A DNA stretch of 64,000 bases from Phyllosticta citribraziliensis (GCF_038025025.1 NW_027117341.1:620001-684000); one strand, 5' to 3'; shown: positions 52,845-62,984, counted from the stretch's first letter. Numbers and translations: made by a program. The notes: a model not told the origin generated them from the sequence alone.

Positions 52845-53100
52845 TATGGCTTGCAAGCGCAAGGTTCGTGGTCGAAAGATGTGGTGATAAGGAATGGCCA
52901 TGAACTTTTTTGGCAGCTCGAGTTCCTTAGCGGCCGCAGTCGAAGCTTGCGCCAACGGGCGACCGAAGCTTCCTTGACAGCACCCGACGCGTCTCCTCCC
53001 TCGTGCCCGACACGCCAATGACTTCACGCGTCACTTGCTTTTGCATCGCGCCAGAATTCCATTTGCGCCCAATCCAGTGGATGCCATTGGCCTAACAGCT

Positions 53101-54270
53101 ATGCCAAACTCGAAACGACGATTCGACGACTTCGCGACCGATCAAGGTTCAACTTCCACTACCCAACCGGCTCCAAAGAAACCCTGCCACGCCCCAATCG
53201 AACACAGGCCTCACGCCCGATACGCGAATCATCCATATTCTGGAGTTGGCGAGAATTTCCACCATGTTCCATATCCATTGGGTTTGATGCCATTTGACTC
53301 GTGGGCATTGTTGCGCCAACCACAGGATGACGTCTCGTCTCATCATTTCTCCTGTCCGAAGTGTCGTCGACGCCGACCTCCTCCCTTACCGCACCGGCGG
53401 AAACTGTTTTTGGTCGCTGAGAGACTGTCTTGGGAAAAGGGCAAGATGCCCGTGGCCCAATTGGAGCGCAATCAAGAGATGACGTGGGAGGTGAATTTCC
53501 GACTAGGAATTTACGAGCCGTTCATCGAGGAGCTTGACCAGGTGCCGGGTGGGAAGCACAGCCAGGAAAGTCCATTCTACCCTTTTGAGGGTATGTCCGA
53601 TTTTTCCTCGGTGATGTTGCTGGTCGCCAAAGGGGAAGACCTGACGGAGGCCTCGTTCAACATGTGGCAGCGAATGTTGGATATCCTGCACTACAGCCTT
53701 GGCCCGGACGACGTAGTAGAACCTCACGAGTCGTCGGGTCCAACGGATGCTCCATCTGTCAAGCAATCCCCTGACTCACAACTCTCTCTAAGCAGGCCCC
53801 TTGAAGTGGAGGACCTGCCGACTCCACCTGGATCGTCGCAACTTGATCCTAGCCAGCCTGCCCAAGACTTTCCTCTGTCCCCTCACAATTCGAAGAAGTC
53901 GCTGGAGGAGATTGGAAGAAATAACCATTTGCCAACACCGCCAGTCTCCTCGCAACCGGGGCCAGATCTGTCCTCTGGAATTTCAACGGGGTCGCCCGGT
54001 CTCCTGGCGCAAACACCGCCATCAAGTAATTCTGGACCAAAAGCACCAATGACGCCAGAAATGGACAATGTCAGCCAGATTGACGAGACGTCCAGAAGGC
54101 CACCGCGCCGAACGCTCCCGGAGTTCTACTCCCTTCTCGACATGATTGAGAGAACATCATATGTCGGCGCGCGGTTCCTCGAGGCTTACGCTGAAGGCTT
54201 GCGGAATGACTGCTGTACCGAATGTTGGTTCACGCTCAATGTTGGGGATGTCAATGAGGATACTCCCTGA
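53101..54270 (+). CDS. Hypothetical protein (orphan-like) with one CxxC near each end
   Basis: ~389-codon uninterrupted ORF, divergent from the SerRS gene; no recognised family. Confidence 0.65.
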   Translation: MPNSKRRFDDFATDQGSTSTTQPAPKKPCHAPIEHRPHARYANHPYSGVGENFHHVPYPLGLMPFDSWALLRQPQDDVSSHHFSCPKCRRRRPPPLPHRRKLFLVAERLSWEKGKMPVAQLERNQEMTWEVNFRLGIYEPFIEELDQVPGGKHSQESPFYPFEGMSDFSSVMLLVAKGEDLTEASFNMWQRMLDILHYSLGPDDVVEPHESSGPTDAPSVKQSPDSQLSLSRPLEVEDLPTPPGSSQLDPSQPAQDFPLSPHNSKKSLEEIGRNNHLPTPPVSSQPGPDLSSGISTGSPGLLAQTPPSSNSGPKAPMTPEMDNVSQIDETSRRPPRRTLPEFYSLLDMIERTSYVGARFLEAYAEGLRNDCCTECWFTLNVGDVNEDTP

Positions 54271-55206
54271 ACGAAAATCCAGGCCGCTGTAAATGAGTGG
54301 CTGTCAATAAGTTGAGGCAACAATATTCAACGCCCGGTTGCCTTGTTTTGAAAGAGGTCCCATTCTAGTGCGGCAAACGTACGCTACGGACGGTCCATCA
54401 ACAAGGCCAAGACCACCCCCAAAAGCCACAAGGATCTGATGTGGGGGCATTCGAGTCGGGACTGGCCGCCACCAGCGACCACATCGTCAGGATGTCTCCT
54501 ACGAGCTCAGGCTCGTCTCCGTACGTAATTTGATATCCAACTATCAACCTGGGACTCTGCAGTATTGGATTTGACGTCTCCTCAAGGCCACTATGAATTT
54601 GGCACGACGTTCCAAACGGATTGGAAACAGTCATATGCTTAACGTCGTCCAGTACGGTATAGACTTGAAAACAGCCCGAAAGTAGACTTCTTCTTGTCTC
54701 AAGCCGAGCGGCTCGTTAGCCCGAGCAGCTCAACTTCATAATTCAATGCTCGCCCTTCGTCCTTTCTCCTGATGCACGCGCGGCATATCTCTTCTTTAGT
54801 GTTTTCGCAAGGCTGTGAGCCTCAATCGGGACTGACAACGCACAGGGGCCATGTTCGCAGTCCTGGTATTGTGCCATGCCTGCGATTACGGTAAAGTAAT
54901 AGGGCAGTGTTTCCTGCTGATTTATTGGGTGAAGAGGTAGCTCTGCCTGGTTGGTGAGGCGCAAGTGGGTGGGGGGCTGAGGCTGACGTGCCGGCAGTGA
55001 TTTCCCAAATGGACAACAGGGGTTTGTGCGCAACTGCGTTTTGGACGGAAAGATTTCGCTTTTCCTTAAGGCTATGAGCCTCCCATCCCCTGCTTGGCCT
55101 TCCTTCCCCGTCTCGTCAATTCGTTTCTCTCGCCACTTCCCAGTGGCGGCCTTTTGTGCAAAGCCTTTGTAGTAGCACCCTCAATCATTTCCCACCACAT
55201 TAAAAA

Positions 55207-57998
55207 ATGCCACATTCAAAACGATCGACGACAACTCGCGAGTCCAGAAGTCAGCCTCCGCCGGAGACTGGGGTTTCTCCCAAACCAACACCGGAGATGA
55301 GCCGCAGAACGTCTGCCGTAAAGTTCAAGCTCCATCTGTCCACAGACGAGCTGCACGAACAGAGCGACGGGGTGCGTGAAGGGTCCTTGTCCGCGGCTGG
55401 AAATGAATCAGGATCCTTTGGCCTAATCGTGGTCGGAAAGAACCTCGATCGAGACAAAAGAGACAAAGAGTCACCCGAAGCTGCCTCGCCTCCTGTTGTT
55501 GAGATCATCGAAGACGCAGATATTTGGATGCAGCCCCTAAGAGATCCTGAGCCGTCGCCCAAATTCTGGTCGCTAGAAACCGGGACAACACTCTCACCAC
55601 AGGATAAGATCCATCCGGAAATTCCCAAAGGAACACCGCCGCCAGCATTGCAGCTGGAAAGACAAAAGTCTGATTCAACCAATGCTACGAACGATCCTGA
55701 CAGTGGCATGCGCGCAACAAATCCGGCCAACTCGAGCGTTGCTGGAACTAGGGATCTCAATCTCCACAGACTTGCTCGAGTCGAAGACTCGCCTTCACCA
55801 CGAGCCCCGCTGATGCAATATCGCGCGACATGGTCTTACCCACTGGTGCAAAGTTCCCAAGCTCGGCCACGGGCCGGGCCTTCTCCATCAGACCAGCAAA
55901 GGCCAAAGGAAATTAGAAGCAAAAATGCTTCGAGCGGGAAATCACCCGCAGCAGACCCCAAAGAGACTTACGGCGATTTGCTTCCAACAAAATGCTCTGG
56001 AAAATCCTCGATTCAAGCGACCCAATATGGCGGGAGTACTGTGGCTTACGGTACGACTGCTCCGATGTCCCATACAGATTGGGAGACTGCTAAAAAAGCT
56101 TCCCCAACGGATCCCCCCGGTGGACGTTACCTTTCACGCCCCCACGCGCATCAATCACTGAAAATCTGTACAAAGGAGATCGCCGGATGTATCATGACAG
56201 ATTTTCAGACCGACATACTCCAAGGAGAAAGTCAGCTAGAGTGTGAAGACTTCTCTGAGGAGACCTCAGAAGCGGACAGTCCATCTTCTTGCGAATCGAA
56301 TTCAGACCGCTCGCCTATCAAGCCGAGAACAGATTATGGGTACCCCGACGAATCGGAGACTTCCGCACTTCGGTTTCCCCTCGAATCATGGCAGAAATTC
56401 GCAACTTCTCGCGGCTCGACGCCTCAGCCACCTGCGTCGGGAAATAACAGGGCCCGGATTCCGTCAACTTCTACAGCAAGCAATAAACGTGGAAGGGAAC
56501 CTTCAAAGGGCCAAAAACGCCGAAACGATGACGAAGAAGACGGATCGGGCGGCAAGAAACGTCGTGATGACCAATCTCTGGATATTCCGACCACTGAAGC
56601 CATTGACAGAAAGCTTGCATGCCCATATTACAAAAGATCAGGAGGAACGCCCAAGGCAGCATCATGCGTGCATCCTGGCTTTTCCAGCGTGTCGCGATTG
56701 AAGTTCGTATACCCACCTATGCAATCTTCGCGCAGACGTTGTTCTGATCTGCTCCAGGGAACATCTCTATCGAAATCACAGACGCCCGATTGTTTGCCCA
56801 CGATGCTACTCACAGTTCGAAAGCCAGGATGGCCTGGATACACACATCAACCAGCCCGTGAGGTGCCTGGAAGTGTTACATCGTCAGAACATAGAGGGCT
56901 TTGGACTGGACCAGGAACGGCAATTGAAGAGCAAGAGAAGGGTTGCAGGTGTGAATACCGAAGAAGATAAATGGAGGGCGGTCTATCGCATCTTGTTTCC
57001 TAATGATATTGATATACCATCGCCATGTAGGTTCCATCACGACAGTCGACTTATTGATAGAGTCAAAGCTGATCTCAATTCTAGACCAAGACTCCGAAGA
57101 TACACCTGGTCCACGCTCCATGGACTTCTCTCGCTGGGAACAAACTTTGCAGGACGAACTGCCACGGGTTGTCCGCCAGACGCTTGAGGACACCTTGAGC
57201 AGAGAAATGCAAGCGATTGAGCAGACTCTAAGGAACCAACTCCCTGATATAATCAGAAACGCACGAGAGCAGCTCTTCACGGCATTCGTTTCAGATGCTC
57301 TAGGACCAATCCAGAATCCGGCGCCTTTCGAAGACAGAACAGCGGATCAGACGCGGCCTTCTGTGGGACCCAGATCGGAGGCAATAGGGCAAGAGACCTA
57401 TCGAGCTTCTGACGGATTACCAACAGCAGACCAAACGCCGGAGGCTGAGAAAATTCGATTAGAGTCGGCGCCTGAGTTGAACACTGCTCCGGTTGATCTT
57501 GCGCCACAGCCTTTTACAGTCAACGGTGTCTCTCTTGCAGGAGATGGAGTCACTTATGATTGGGTTGACCCCATGAGGACCCATATGCAAAATCAATTCT
57601 TGAATTCAGCCTCAGGGACGACAGGCCTTGATAACAGCAGAGACGCGCCAATAACTCCCCCGGACGACCCAGAAGCAGAGGCTCAACTCCTGAAAGACTC
57701 GGACTCGCTGGAACCGACTGAGACTGAATTTCTGTGGGATTTTGGCGACTGTGGCTCATACCAAAACCCTTTCAGCAGTCTCTTCCCTGAATTCACCAGA
57801 AGGCTGCCGCCACAGTTTCCTGAATATACCACACAAAACATCAGCCAAGCGACTTCTGGTGAACTTAATGGCCCAGGCCCAAGTGTAGGCTCAACCAGCG
57901 GCTTGTACAGCATCTCGGAGTCCATATCTCCTTTCGATCCTGGCCCAAGTCTTTATGGCAAGAACGACGTCACAGCTGGTAGCTGGAGAGATATCTAA
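55207..57998 (+). CDS. Uncharacterised protein with a central fungal Cys/His (C2H2-like) domain ACPYYK..C..F..SRLKEHLYRNH..CPRC..H..C..KW..YRILFP..IPSPY; introns 56703-56757 and 57027-57084
   Basis: Splicing joins ORFs 55207, 56858 and 57003 in frame; basic NLS-like GKKRR before the domain; disordered flanks. Confidence 0.8.
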
Positions 57999-58462
57999 TG
58001 AGAGATAGCAATCTAATTCCTGTTTCGTTGGATCGGTCTCCTGTCTTTGACAAATTACTGGAAGATCTTCGTGGTACCGCTGCTACATCTGGGAGCAGTC
58101 GTTCACCGCCACGTATGATGCTAGGGAGCTGTTATCACCTCTCTACTTGCGTTTATGGAGCCTCCGTCCTCCACTGCAGCTAGACCAGGGATTATCATTT
58201 CTTTCGCCACATACTGTGATCGCATCCTTCAGGTCTGCTGAATCTCTTCACACCATTTCCGACACCCAAAAAATGGTCACGCACGACACGGCTTTGAGAT
58301 TCGAAAAGGGGACATACTCAAAATTGATACCCATAATGCTTCGTTTTGCAAAACATATTCCCACAATTTTCCAGCGCTGCTACTGAAACAAGCCACTGAT
58401 GAGGTGTTCCCATCTTTTTGTCCTGTCTGTACGCTGGGTTTGAGATATCCTTGATTCAGGCT

Positions 58463-58864
58463 TCACAAGCCATGCACGAGCAGTGAACGCCTCCAGTTTT
58501 CAAAGCTCAATTTGACCACCGAGAAATCCATATCGTCGCTTCTTTGAATAATACCATCCAAATCTGTCTCTTGGTCAAATTTCAGAACAGTGTATCCACT
58601 CTCAACGTCATCGAGCGATACGTACCAGGAGGAACCAACGCTGTGTCTCCCACATCCGTGCTTGAGCGAGACCTTTCCTTCATTTTCTAGTCGATGATTT
58701 GCAGCGGTTGCTCTTGTTACACAGCTGCTGTCTCGGACATGACTGCAGTTGATACAGGCGGGATAGAGGGCGATCATCATGGGACCGAAATTGCAGCGGC
58801 AGCAGTAGTAACTGGCATTATCTGAGTCGACTGGGGCCAGATACATGCGTGGGAGTGGTGACAT
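58463..58864 (-). CDS. Small zinc-ribbon-like protein (YYCCRCNFGPM..CINCSHVRDSSC); 3' exon structure uncertain
   Basis: ATG in ACC-ATG context; dense Cys/His motif; possible donor GTACGT at 58625. Confidence 0.65.
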   Translation of the reverse strand: MSPLPRMYLAPVDSDNASYYCCRCNFGPMMIALYPACINCSHVRDSSCVTRATAANHRLENEGKVSLKHGCGRHSVGSSWYVSLDDVESGYTVLKFDQETDLDGIIQRSDDMDFSVVKLSFENWRRSLLVHGL

Positions 58865-60108
58865 GGTGAATTTGAGAAAGTGCTTCGAAGGCGTTGCAAA
58901 CAAGAAGGTAATGGAATCAGTGGTGCTGTTTTTGGAATACACTGGATGCAGCTATTCATATGTACTTATTCTTTCATTATTTGGTCTGATATCCAGCTAA
59001 GTTTCTAAGTCTGCTTTGCTCCGCGTATTTCTTTGGGAGCTAAACATTTGCCTGGGACGATGGCCCTGCGCAAAAAGGTGCGGACTGTCAAACACCACGC
59101 GCACATGCGCACAAAGCCTTACAAAGTACCGACACTTTGGATATGCGCCATCGCAGGCCAGGCAACTGCAAGACTGTGCGCATCTACTTTTAACGGAGGC
59201 CGCCGACCGAAACTTCGACCAGACGCCATGTCTCGACAAACGCCTGTAATTCACCGCCTTACTCGGCCGCTCGAACTGGCCAGCATGCCTCCAGATGTAG
59301 AGACAGCGAGGGCAGCCAATCATCAGGAGCTCATGACCGGGGAGAACCGAGGAGGATCAGAGCCTCTGATGCTGAACCGAAAAACCGGGAAATGCGCATC
59401 GCCCAGGTCAAGCTGACGGAGGCGTTCAGATAGCAGCGACGACGTTTTCGACTGCGCGCGGCTGAGCCGTCTCCGTATTACGCGATTGCGCGCTTCGCCG
59501 CTGGCGGTACGGCGTAAGAGTCGAGCGGGCCCGCGGCGCAATGTCGATCGGGGTGTGTGGTTGACTGCTGCGGCGTAGCAGCAGCAAGAGCGAACTTCAG
59601 CCCTGACACGACCCTCTTGTTGACCGCCCTGTCTTTCTTAATACCCATACAGCCGGCACACACCCGACGTGCTGCTGACGTCCTGGTCGACCTGCTTCTT
59701 GGATGGGGGTGGGCGGGCGCCGGTCAACCGTCTTTGTGCGTGAAACCGTCTCTCTGTCTGCAAGAAATTGGCCCAGCGCCGCCCTCCACGTCGTTGGATG
59801 CCGATGATGCAGCGACTCTGCCCGCTCGCCTCAACGCCTTATAAGGAGAAACCGTTGGCCTCGCATGAGTGGCTGAAATGCCCTTTCTCTGGTTGCTCAA
59901 TAAAGGCGCGTTGTACTCAGGTTTTTGGTTCCAGTGCCTGATCCTTAGACGCGCTCTGCCGCCGGTCCAGCCAGGCCCAACGATTAATCTCTAATGAACG
60001 TCAGCAAAAGCTATTTTTGCGACCAAAAGCCCAAAAGCTACGATTCGTTCGCCGCCGGCTACTTTGTCAGGCTCGTCCCGTAGCGCGGCGATCCCGGACG
60101 GCAGCAAC

Positions 60109-61186
60109 ATGGAAAACGCAGCGTGGAACCATCAGTACTACAATAATCAATATCCGTCAGCAGCTGCTGTGCAGAGTCATCCTCCTCAGAATGAACCTGC
60201 TTTCAATTCAGTAACTTACGGACAACCTTTCAGCCAGGATGCGAATTGGGAGCAGCCGTTCAATGGATCGTCCAGGAGCTTCGAGGCCGCCGCCGCTCCT
60301 CTCATGTAGGTTCCGAGATGTTGGCCGTCACAGCGCTTGTGACACTGCTAACACGCTCCAGGGGTATTCCAACCCACCAACAACAACAAGCATGGCCAGC
60401 TCCTCCTCCTCATCAAGCGCCCAGAGAACAGCATTTTTCTTCAATTGGTGCCGGCCGAGTGCATCATGGGTCTGTTCATAATGCCAACGCAGTTCAAGAT
60501 GTTGGGCGACCGGTATATATCCCATCGACGGAGGTCACTTTCGAGCCAAATTACCCGTCTGCTCTTCCAAAGCTTCTTCAAAGGCAGGGAGAAATAATAT
60601 CGGATCGGACCGAGGAGCCAGACGAAGAAGCGGAGTCACCAATGGAAGGACCCGCCCTTCGCATCAGTTGCCCCTATTATCTGAGAGCGCCACATGCAGA
60701 ACACAGATCATCGGCATGTCGCGGACGGGCTTTCCTAGATATATCGAGGCTGAAGTGAGTTAAAAATTCTTCCCAGACCCCCCGATTCTCGCCACCCTTT
60801 TCTTTGATGTCCTCCCACACTTACTGAGTCGTTCTTGCGGTGTACCAGAGACCACCTTGTGAAGATCCACGACACACGGATCCCGAAGAGGATGACGGGG
60901 CAATCGACAGAGGCTAAATGGAAAAGCATCTGGAAGAATTTGTTTGGGGACAACTGGCCAGATAAAGAGATTCCGGTTCACTGTACGTACTGTCTCCATT
61001 CGGCTGATGGAGCGGCCCCAGCTGATCTGAATACCTTCCGCAGACTGGACGGGGATCGAAGCGTGCGAGAAGCATGTCCTGGACTGGATCGAGGAGAACT
61101 ATCCAGGCGCACCCACCGAAGAAGTCAGGAGGGCATTTGAAAGCTTCAAGTCACGTTCGCTGCCAGGCCCAGGCCCAGGTAGATAG
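60109..61186 (+). CDS. Shorter paralogue of the 55.2 kb gene (ISCPYYL..C..F..ISRLKDHLVKIH..KWKSIWKNLF..IPVHY); introns 60306-60361, 60755-60848, 60983-61043
   Basis: Three GT-AG introns give one continuous frame ending TAG at 61184-61186; N-terminus rich in Q/N/P. Confidence 0.78.
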
Positions 61187-61456
61187 ACGAGACGAAGGCG
61201 TGGAGTTCATGCGCAGGCAGAGTGGGTTAGCATTGCATTGGTGGAAATCTTGCCGAAGCTGGCTCTTGTTCCGACACATATACATATATTTGCATCAAGT
61301 AAATATACCCAAATACCGCTCTAATCATACTGCAGAGTTAGTATCCCGTCCTCAAAAGAAAGTGCTGCGCGATGTGATGAGCCATAATGCTTTGCTCATC
61401 GTAAAGGCCAACAGTGAGAACATCTCGCTCGCAAGCGGTGGTCCATTTTGAGCTTG

Positions 61457-62057
61457 TAGCACGTCTCACAGCGCGCAGCCAGCCAGCAGGGACAATCCAG
61501 TCCATTCAGCAACGGCTCACGCCGGCGACAATATGCACGTCATGGCCAGCTACGTAGCTGGTAGGTACCAGCCAACAGCCCCACACACCACGACCACCAA
61601 CCCACCGCACCGCCACGCCACGCCAGCACATCCTCACCACCTTCTCAACCCCATGTCAATTTTCCCCTCTCCCGCGCCAAACGCCTCGCGCCGTCGCGCG
61701 TTGAGGCTGCCTGGCAGGCAGTTCGCCCGCGGCGCGAAGCGAGTGCGACACGGGCGTGGCTGGCCCCGATTGGCTCCAGGCAGTGGAGGGGCAGGCACTT
61801 TCTTACAACGCATGCTTTGGCCGGCGTGCAGCGCTGGGGCTGTAGGTACCGAGGGCTTGGGTAGGGTTGTCGCGATGATGCATGTTGTTGTGTGGCTGCG
61901 CTTTGGCGCTGGAGAGGTGGTGGACGGGTGGATTTGATTGGAGCTGTGGCAGGAAGGTGTGGGAGCCGGACTGTTGGGTCGCGAATGTTAGGTGAGGTAG
62001 GTTCTTGCGTGAGCCGCGCTGGATGGCTGGCTGGCTGGCGATGTGAGAGGCTTGCTA
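61457..62057. repeat. Degenerate inverted repeat / foldback, possibly a MITE relic
   Basis: Colinear reverse-complement blocks, e.g. TCTCACA, CAGCCAGCCAGC, ATCCAG, CGGCTCACGC, CCAACAG and CCTCTCC-GCGCCAAA. Confidence 0.6.
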
Positions 62058-62984
62058 GTTGGTCGGTGACGACTGTTCGCTTCGAAAGTGTGGTTCGGAG
62101 AAGATGCAATGTTTGCAATATCCACTGCATTTCGAAACACCAAGGCCTAGGAAGAGAAAGCAGGCGGTGTCATATTGAGGACCACTGGATGATGGATCAT
62201 TTGGGTTGTTCCCCTCGACTCAAGAACGAAGCAAAAGAGCAGGAAAACACCAGAAGCAGCGGACGGTGCAAACAGCGAGACCGGCGGAATACTGAGTTCG
62301 ATTCCATCAGAATCGATTCCCAGCAAGTTCCAGCACATTCAACCGGCGTGAGAAATCAACCAGCGATCGAAGCAGAATTCGCGAACAATCTGCCGTTCAT
62401 GAACCAAAGTGCTAGCCTTACCAGCATTCAGGCCGGCAGTTGGTTGACTGTTGCGCCGGTAGTATGGGGACATCCACTTGCGTTAAATTCGCCCATGCCA
62501 ACCGGCCACCCAGGCTGTTCTGCTTCCGATTTCGAGCCACAACAGGTTTTCTCTTTCTTCGCGATCATGAATTCTCCTGCTGCATACCTGCTTATTTCTG
62601 TCAGCCTGTAGTTTTCAAATGGCGTGCTGCACCCTTTTGCTCTGTGTAAATTCAGAGGCTGAGACGATCTAGAGAAGTGAGCTAGAAGCAAAGGAGACAT
62701 CCTAAATGTAGGCAGGATCAACAGAAAGTCAAAAGCAGGCTAGTGTCTTGTTCATTCGCGATGATCAATGTACAAATGTTCCGAGCTGGCACGCTCAAGC
62801 TCATGATTGTCCTGCTCTTTTGATGTCTTTGCCTGCTCTGATTACTCGTTGTTGAAAAAAGTAGCGTTTGAATGTCACAAGGCCGAATCATAGTTTGTAA
62901 AACGCATTCAATTACCCAACATGAAGTGACGCTGTACTTTGGCCATACACGAAAGGTATCAAAGTTCGCAAAAGGAAAGATACC

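Follow-up and report, generated by a model that had tools for sequence, protein, structure and literature searches.

Two related zinc-finger genes flank a small zinc-ribbon gene in Phyllosticta citribraziliensis

Short paralogues can modulate full-length regulators, as the Id proteins do for basic helix-loop-helix (bHLH) factors and microProteins do in plants, and modulators of this type retain a dimerisation element. In fungi, the loci that govern heterokaryon incompatibility and allorecognition are made up of HET-domain and NLR genes. Both are points of reference for the locus described here, a block of three genes (A, B and C) at positions 55207-61186 of a 64,000-nucleotide (nt) stretch of Phyllosticta citribraziliensis DNA (GCF_038025025.1, NW_027117341.1:620001-684000), referred to throughout as the window. 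Two further points of reference are the classical DNA-binding C2H2 zinc-finger proteins (2i13 and 1mey in the PDB) and a family of small fungal zinc-ribbon proteins that typically hold two CCxCxxGP copies in about 160 amino acids (aa). An earlier, sequence-only reading of the window had proposed that a long gene and a truncated paralogue are kept together with a small partner as an undescribed regulatory or allorecognition-like module. We consider instead that the block probably holds two old tandem copies from a single Pezizomycotina-specific zinc-finger family, and that the small ribbon gene between them is unrelated. The locus is a well-supported new member pair in an uncharacterised branch of C2H2-type zinc fingers; on present evidence it is no new kind of system, and as it stands it is ordinary gene-family evolution.

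Gene A occupies 55207-57998 on the plus strand and encodes 892 aa in three exons (55207-56702, 56758-57026 and 57085-57998), separated by introns at 56703-56757 (55 nt, phase 2) and 57027-57084 (58 nt, phase 1) that are given by the splice model together with RNA-derived contigs of the sequencing runs X1 and X2. Gene C, at 60109-61186 on the same strand, has a splice model of four exons (60109-60305, 60362-60754, 60849-60982 and 61044-61186) encoding 288 aa, with introns of 56, 94 and 61 nt whose joints are present in X1, X2 and a further run, X13. Between the two, on the minus strand, gene B is an intronless open reading frame (ORF) at 58463-58864 that is identical in sequence to P0011. The three genes thus lie where the sequence-only reading had placed them, and our splice models for A and C match those it had drawn, though its term 'microprotein' does not suit gene B, which is small but has 133 aa. 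Coordinates of sub-features inside the three genes were worked out by hand and may be in error by one codon. Exon lengths show that the intron in the Lys codon of SRLK is in phase 2, and that in the closing Tyr codon in phase 1, in gene A and gene C alike, so that the identity of intron places and phases first noticed stands and is borne out by the X1 and X2 contigs. The block also departs, as had been remarked, from the GC-rich codon style of its surroundings, with a GC content at third codon positions (GC3) of 0.49 in gene A, 0.53 in gene B and 0.51 in gene C as compared to 0.57-0.79 in seven nearby long ORFs.

Splicing of the pair is directly visible in assembled reads. Contigs of X1 and X2 skip five of five introns of A and C exactly, with GT..AG boundaries, and all are therefore removed as had been predicted; in X13, introns 2 and 3 of gene C are skipped at identical positions, and the joint at intron 1 is shifted by one base. 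In the run X3, DNA contigs cross the introns uninterrupted at 56254-56754 and 60656-60936, and since this DNA retains the introns, the intron-less joined forms derive from RNA. The RNA status of X1, X2 and X13 is itself taken from the intron-skipping contigs, the run records listing none of them as RNA, and the transcript contigs carry no strand information and cannot prove transcript ends. X1 and X2 come from two studies, with contigs 100% identical to the window, and both may be the assembled strain; X3 is the sole run clearly independent of that strain, and X13 represents a related organism (66 of 1,563 letters differ) that covers gene C only and is silent on A and B.

The domain carried by gene A marks a widespread family of filamentous ascomycetes. 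With exon 2 of gene A as the query and a threshold of E <= 1e-3, 10 proteins were recovered among 24 candidates (P0001-P0010, hereafter A-type proteins), namely the Phyllosticta orthologues P0001 and P0002 (75% on exon 2) and eight further proteins of Pezizomycotina. The taxa represented are Aplosporella, Xylaria, Hypoxylon, Phaeosphaeriaceae, Neopestalotiopsis and Lepidopterella, and they fall in Botryosphaeriales, Xylariales, Pleosporales and other orders. Database labels for the ten are only 'C2H2-type domain-containing protein' or 'hypothetical protein', and 29 of the 30 nearest Atlas clusters of the A-type fall in a single unnamed Ascomycota set, with scores up to 0.96. A search of the literature found no paper on the A-type family or on the ribbon family of gene B. 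In P0009, the A-type protein of Neopestalotiopsis, an N-terminal DUF6590 domain unrelated to the shared one (residues 84-250, E 7e-43) scores above its Pfam cut-off, which indicates that the two-finger core has been joined to other modules in some lineages.

The conserved elements follow one another along the plus strand of gene A. A basic stretch resembling a nuclear localization signal, read from the translation as two Lys/Arg clusters round an acidic spacer, lies at 56485-56565 just before finger 1, and a pattern scan found a comparable stretch at the corresponding place in two of 10 A-type proteins (P0001 and P0003). Finger 1 (56620-56779) is atypical and C2H2-like, with the spacing C-x14-C-x13-H-x4-H, and is split by intron 1, while finger 2 (56795-56866) is of the classical type, C-x2-C-x12-H-x6-C (C2HC). 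They are followed by the KW..LF helix and closing IPSPY (56969-57026, pattern match at 56972), the Tyr codon of which is split by intron 2, and by a long helix at 57126-57287, a possible coiled coil, to which P0006 and P0010 align in tblastn. In an alignment of 13 proteins, comprising the A-types plus three relatives of gene C (C-types), the Cys/His ligands of finger 1, the RxKxHL motif and the K, W, L and F of KW..LF are invariant or nearly so, and the ligands of finger 2 are invariant in the 10 A-types. Gene A carries every conserved A-type feature, i.e., both fingers, RxKxHL, the EGF..QE.QLK linker, KW..LFP, IPSPY and the helix. The AlphaFold2 (AF2) model of P0010 shows short strands then helices at both fingers; the domain, residues 78-200, has a block-mean predicted local distance difference test (pLDDT) score of 58-88, mostly above 70, and the helix at 208-267 scores about 90.

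With a long disordered N-terminus, the basic stretch, two fingers, the KW..LF helix, the long helix and a disordered tail, gene A is a full-length member of its family. From this make-up, we propose that the basic stretch would direct the protein into the nucleus, where it would bind nucleic acid by its fingers, most likely as a transcription-type regulator, and that it may pair through the long helix as a coiled coil. When the family profile was compared to PDB sequences, only the finger 2 segment found matches, to the designed six-finger protein 2i13 (E 1e-5) and the consensus zinc finger 1mey (E 0.0013). The likeness to these classical C2H2 proteins lies in finger 2, which fits C-x2-C...F...L..H in the A-types, and in the basic stretch beside the fingers; in contrast to them, A-type finger 2 ends in Cys after six residues, finger 1 has the spacing given above, and the A-types have only two fingers, followed by the family-specific KW..LF helix and the long helix.

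Several results weigh against the assignment of gene A to this type of regulator. The Pfam models PF00096, PF13894 and PF13912 remain below their cut-offs on gene A exon 2 (14.1-14.4 bits vs 25-27), and C2H2 models reach only 13.9-18.4 bits in five of the six relatives scanned; no model in the Pfam copy used reaches its cut-off on the shared A-type domain. Foldseek returned no match at E <= 0.001, and its top rows, which include WT1 and Zif268, are complexes of C2H2 proteins with DNA but have E > 2. No A-type family member with a tested function was found, and the label 'regulator' consequently derives from domain make-up alone. The non-canonical spacing of finger 1, moreover, may signify binding of protein or RNA and not of DNA. 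This last point opens onto a different explanation, in which the A family consists of protein- or RNA-binding adaptors with fingers as interaction modules, and the small number of fingers, the disorder of most of the protein and a C-x14-C spacing unlike that of DNA-reading fingers would all suit such a role, as would weak matches to zf_UBZ (E 0.019) and zf-met (E 0.07) in relatives, which are sub-threshold and were disregarded as identities. Finger 2, however, aligns best with DNA-binding C2H2 fingers, the weak Foldseek rows at the top of the list (E > 2) are without exception DNA-bound C2H2 proteins, and the basic stretch precedes the fingers. We therefore consider an adaptor role rather unlikely and favor a nucleic-acid-binding regulator. 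Other sub-threshold Pfam matches were likewise disregarded (the SAC3 helical domain in gene A exon 3, E 0.0053, 17.3 bits vs 25; FYDLN_acid; and Prok-RING_2), and a wide structure search (VIA) gave a list filled by the long helix, with generic coiled coils at Z of about 6.

Gene C is a truncated relative of gene A, as the sequence-only reading had supposed. The C-type P0012 and P0001, the P. citricarpa orthologue of gene A, align with a BLASTP E of 5e-7 and 31/141 identities, and the 51 gap positions in this alignment fall where the A-type protein has its second finger and linker, both of which are missing from C. Another C-type, P0014, matches the distant A-type P0010 over finger 1 (16/41 identities, E 4e-8). 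Together with the invariant residues of the 13-protein alignment, these matches establish the shared domain. In gene C the domain parts lie on the plus strand, finger 1 at 60669-60870 and KW..LF at 60916-60948 (pattern match at 60919), with no finger 2 between them; the finger-1 ligands, RxKxHL and KW..LF are carried, and the EGF..QE.QLK linker and long helix are absent along with finger 2. The termini of the two proteins had been described as looking unrelated, but this is not so for the whole of the C-termini: some 45 residues directly after the closing Tyr of C can still be aligned to the A-type helical region where it begins. P0012 as modelled by AF2 is disordered over residues 1-160 (pLDDT below 50) and moderately confident, at 59-81, over residues 160-280, which span finger 1 and three helices.

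The long form and its truncated paralogue are both transcribed and spliced, and each has orthologues in other Phyllosticta. For gene C, these are the only relatives, four proteins among 1144 candidates, all from Phyllosticta: P0012 and P0013 (95%), P0014 (55%) and P0015 (41%), from three further species of the genus. P0012, from P. citrichinensis, is 95% identical to exon 2 of gene C and has the same splice pattern. The records of the gene A orthologue P0001 and of P0014 both give 955,966 bp as the longest contig, a mere hint that the two share a location. C-types match every A-type at 20-30 of 73-78 positions and are barely nearer to the A-types of Phyllosticta than to others, and no DNA repeat of at least 25 nt is shared between genes A and C. 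The even distances from C to A, the restriction of C relatives to Phyllosticta and the lack of A/C repeats all indicate that the duplication is old. A tblastn search detected no further A-, B- or C-type copy in the window.

The shared introns are a trait of wider reach than this pair. The A-type domain encoded at L017, an unrelated family member on a 3,060-bp contig from a soil metagenome, has introns at both sites and in both phases seen in A and C, so that the two family sites and phases are present in three of three genes with readable DNA (A, C and L017). As the identical sites in L017 extend beyond the pair, the introns are no mark of a special tie between A and C.

Our results suggest that gene C would be a lineage-restricted derivative in which finger 1, the KW..LF helix and two short helices persist, but the basic stretch, finger 2 and the long helix are gone. 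On its own, its product would probably not bind the same target as that of gene A, and it may have either a new role or one as modulator of the long form. In the latter respect, it resembles Id proteins and microProteins, being a truncated paralogue that lacks the finger likely to read DNA and adjoins the long form; unlike them, it no longer has the long helix, which would be the most probable pairing element, and retains finger 1. With an RNA-supported full-length member beside a natural derivative without finger 2, the locus lends itself to dissecting the role of each finger. The leader of gene C (59518-60108, plus strand) is ~590 nt long, with contigs starting at 59518 (X1) and 59532 (X13), and holds eight upstream ATGs that open ORFs of 3-47 codons, an arrangement suggestive of translational control. 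In the database models of P0013 (P. citrichinensis) and P0015 (P. capitalensis), the intron 1 region of the gene C orthologue (window 60195-60361) is read through or skirted in another frame, and because the transcript contigs back the splice pattern of P0012, these two models are probably mis-annotated.

Gene B is a different kind of protein, and its relatives belong to another family. An exhaustive phmmer search of 1.84 billion representatives returned 66 relatives at E <= 1e-3, all of which match within query residues 1-83 only; the match to P0016 has an E of 3.5e-12 over the N-terminal 40 residues. These proteins (P0016-P0081) are small fungal proteins with the motif [WY][YF]CCxCxxGP...CxxC.H..C, present by a strict pattern in two copies in 39, in one copy in 21 and in none in six. 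The ribbon of gene B, with a CCxC..GP..CxxCxH motif, covers residues 19-48 (58810-58721, minus strand), and the seven positions C21, C24, G27, P28, C37, C40 and C48, which are invariant in 20 ribbon sequences, are all present. The small CCxC..GPM..CxxCxH gene that had been recognized between A and C is thereby placed in a family. In comparison to the typical double-ribbon protein, gene B has a single copy of the motif with no second copy nearby, is missing the last Cys of the closing CxxC, and has a 75-residue tail of its own, for which the same search found no relatives (residues 60-133). No Pfam match above cut-off was found in genes A, B or C or in 12 ribbon relatives, and a search of PDB sequences with the ribbon profile gave no matches. 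Two Atlas rows for gene B, 'RanBP2-type' (0.88) and a neighbouring cluster named PF26652 Zn_ribbon_double (0.83), fall below the score of 0.9 under which we treat rows as leads only; PF26652 gave no match in the Pfam copy used, which may not include that model.

No orthologue of gene B is annotated, the sole candidate in a collection of 5.8 billion proteins clustered at 90% being gene B itself, and the question arises as to whether it is a separate coding gene at all. Transcript contigs span the region colinearly from 57085 to 58962 with no splice there. The ORF could be an antisense frame within a long 3' untranslated region (UTR) of gene A: X1 and X2 each have one colinear contig extending from gene A as far as 58962, the contigs do not give the strand, and the last 75 residues are without relatives. 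Against this stand the family match of the N-terminal 40 residues and the invariant positions, a combination hard to get from non-coding sequence, and the ends of the X1 and X2 contigs, which lie 97-98 nt upstream of the gene B ATG. We consider the antisense interpretation very unlikely. Gene B would instead be a one-copy, fast-evolving ribbon protein, convergent to A and divergent from C, whose position is most likely an accident of gene order.

The neighbourhoods of other ribbon genes bear directly on whether gene B is the small partner that had been proposed. A scan of Joint Genome Institute (JGI) metagenome contigs with the ribbon alignment yielded 24 loci (~19 distinct) totalling 306,657 bp, and an A-type hidden Markov model (HMM) run over their six-frame ORFs found hits only at L017 (E 4e-25 and 6.8e-8). 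The other 23 of the 24 loci (~303 kb) have no A-type gene, with nothing else below an E of 1 and a pattern scan in agreement. Fused forms are equally absent from the protein sets, the ribbon occurring in 0 of 10 A-type proteins and the A-type motif in 0 of 67 ribbon proteins. Recurrent linkage of the two families thus fails in 23 of 24 loci and holds in one exception, and the designation of gene B, for which there is also no annotated orthologue, as a partner is not supported in the form proposed. What recurs beside the ribbon is a DHHC palmitoyltransferase gene, 2-6 kb from a two-ribbon gene in L003, L007, L013, L018 and L019; gene B lies outside this DHHC-linked neighbourhood.

The exception nonetheless deserves attention. 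At L017 (105-2233), a single ribbon immediately precedes an A-type gene that shares its strand and reading frame, with the ribbon ORF ending at 386 and the A-type ORF continuing from 387. The 96-nt interval 340-435 (GTAGGA...CTAAC...TAG) is a predicted intron, the removal of which would give a fusion protein of ~619 aa, a single predicted case that no RNA backs. Such an arrangement may argue that gene B is not a mere bystander, as could the starts of B and C, which lie ~555 bp apart on opposite strands and could be co-regulated. The B-C spacer (58963-59517, ~555 bp), delimited by contig ends at 58961 (X2) and 58962 (X1) and by starts at 59518 (X1) and 59532 (X13), is possibly a shared divergent promoter, though we regard this as a weak hint. 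One could accordingly envision the three genes as a functional module of the regulatory form, in which B works with the A-type domain by binding or in a complex and C tunes the pair. In addition to the L017 arrangement and the divergent starts, the presence of transcript contigs over all three regions would be in keeping with this, and because A-type genes are sparse (none in the ~303 kb), an adjacency of less than 100 nt is unlikely by chance, although this is drawn from one event. The 23 loci that have the ribbon and no A-type neighbour, the complete lack of fused forms in both protein sets, the existence of annotated orthologues for A and C but not for B, and the purely predicted status of the L017 fusion intron argue otherwise, and we consider the module unlikely. 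A complex prediction for P0001 residues 430-640 with gene B gave a score of 0.01 vs a mark of 0.34, run without controls, and is evidence neither way.

A bolder version of this proposal holds that in Pezizomycotina the function of the CCxCxxGP ribbon is tied to that of the CPYY/KW..LF two-finger domain, the two forming a previously undescribed two-component zinc-finger regulatory unit, present as separate neighbouring genes in Phyllosticta and as one gene in the L017 organism, with C as a modulator without finger 2 and with B and C sharing a divergent promoter. We judge this joint reading to be quite unlikely. Were the ribbon link of L017 to be general, however, two uncharacterised fungal zinc-binding families would be tied together. 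On the evidence assembled here, we continue to favor a tandem pair with a ribbon gene that is probably independent of it.

The remaining part of the sequence-only reading, an allorecognition-like module, finds little in the block to sustain it. A self/non-self locus with diverged alleles might be suspected from the low GC3, from the apparent orphan status of gene B, and from the fast divergence between species, A being 61% and C 55-58% identical to the P. citricarpa/paracitricarpa proteins, with no alignment to A over residues 1-246 of P0001. In being lineage-restricted, fast-evolving and low in GC3, the genes of the block do resemble het loci; they differ from them in having no HET, NACHT or HeLo domain and no allelic divergence seen in three runs. 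More specifically, no HET, NACHT, NLR, HeLo or other death or recognition domain exceeded its Pfam cut-off in eight exon pieces of A, B and C and six relatives. Contig pieces are at least 99% identical to the window in X1 (3/3), X2 (4/4) and X3 (19/19) with no variant rows, X3 being the only run among these that is clearly independent of the assembled strain, and the flanking genes are housekeeping ones, i.e., syntaxin-18, an MFS transporter, seryl-tRNA synthetase and a short-chain dehydrogenase. An allorecognition role for the block is, in our assessment, extremely improbable, and we retain the tandem-pair explanation.

Further observations concern the surroundings of the ribbon genes and the transcription of the window. 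At the metagenome loci, neighbouring genes were identified by a Pfam scan of 72 of 244 ORFs of at least 130 aa, the longest ones being chosen. Besides DHHC, a two-ribbon gene was found near lipase and KN-homeobox genes (L002 and L007) or myosin genes (L011 and L013), and ribbon genes are arrayed in tandem in L003, L007 and L014. The two-ribbon gene with DHHC, lipase or myosin genes is a conserved neighbourhood of an uncharacterised small zinc protein. In the window, Rfam gave no match in 53000-62500. The B-C spacer holds small low-depth contigs (X1, 59133-59436; X2, 59329-59466) that overlap a 135-codon ORF at 59009-59416 on the plus strand, itself without a Pfam match. On the other side of the block, the X2 contig with gene A starts at 55119, and the X1 contig reaches ~1,980 nt upstream of 55000 (about 53017-55206). 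This extension crosses an unannotated 430-codon ORF (52978-54267) that has no Pfam match, and it could represent read-through or the overlapping transcripts of neighbouring genes.

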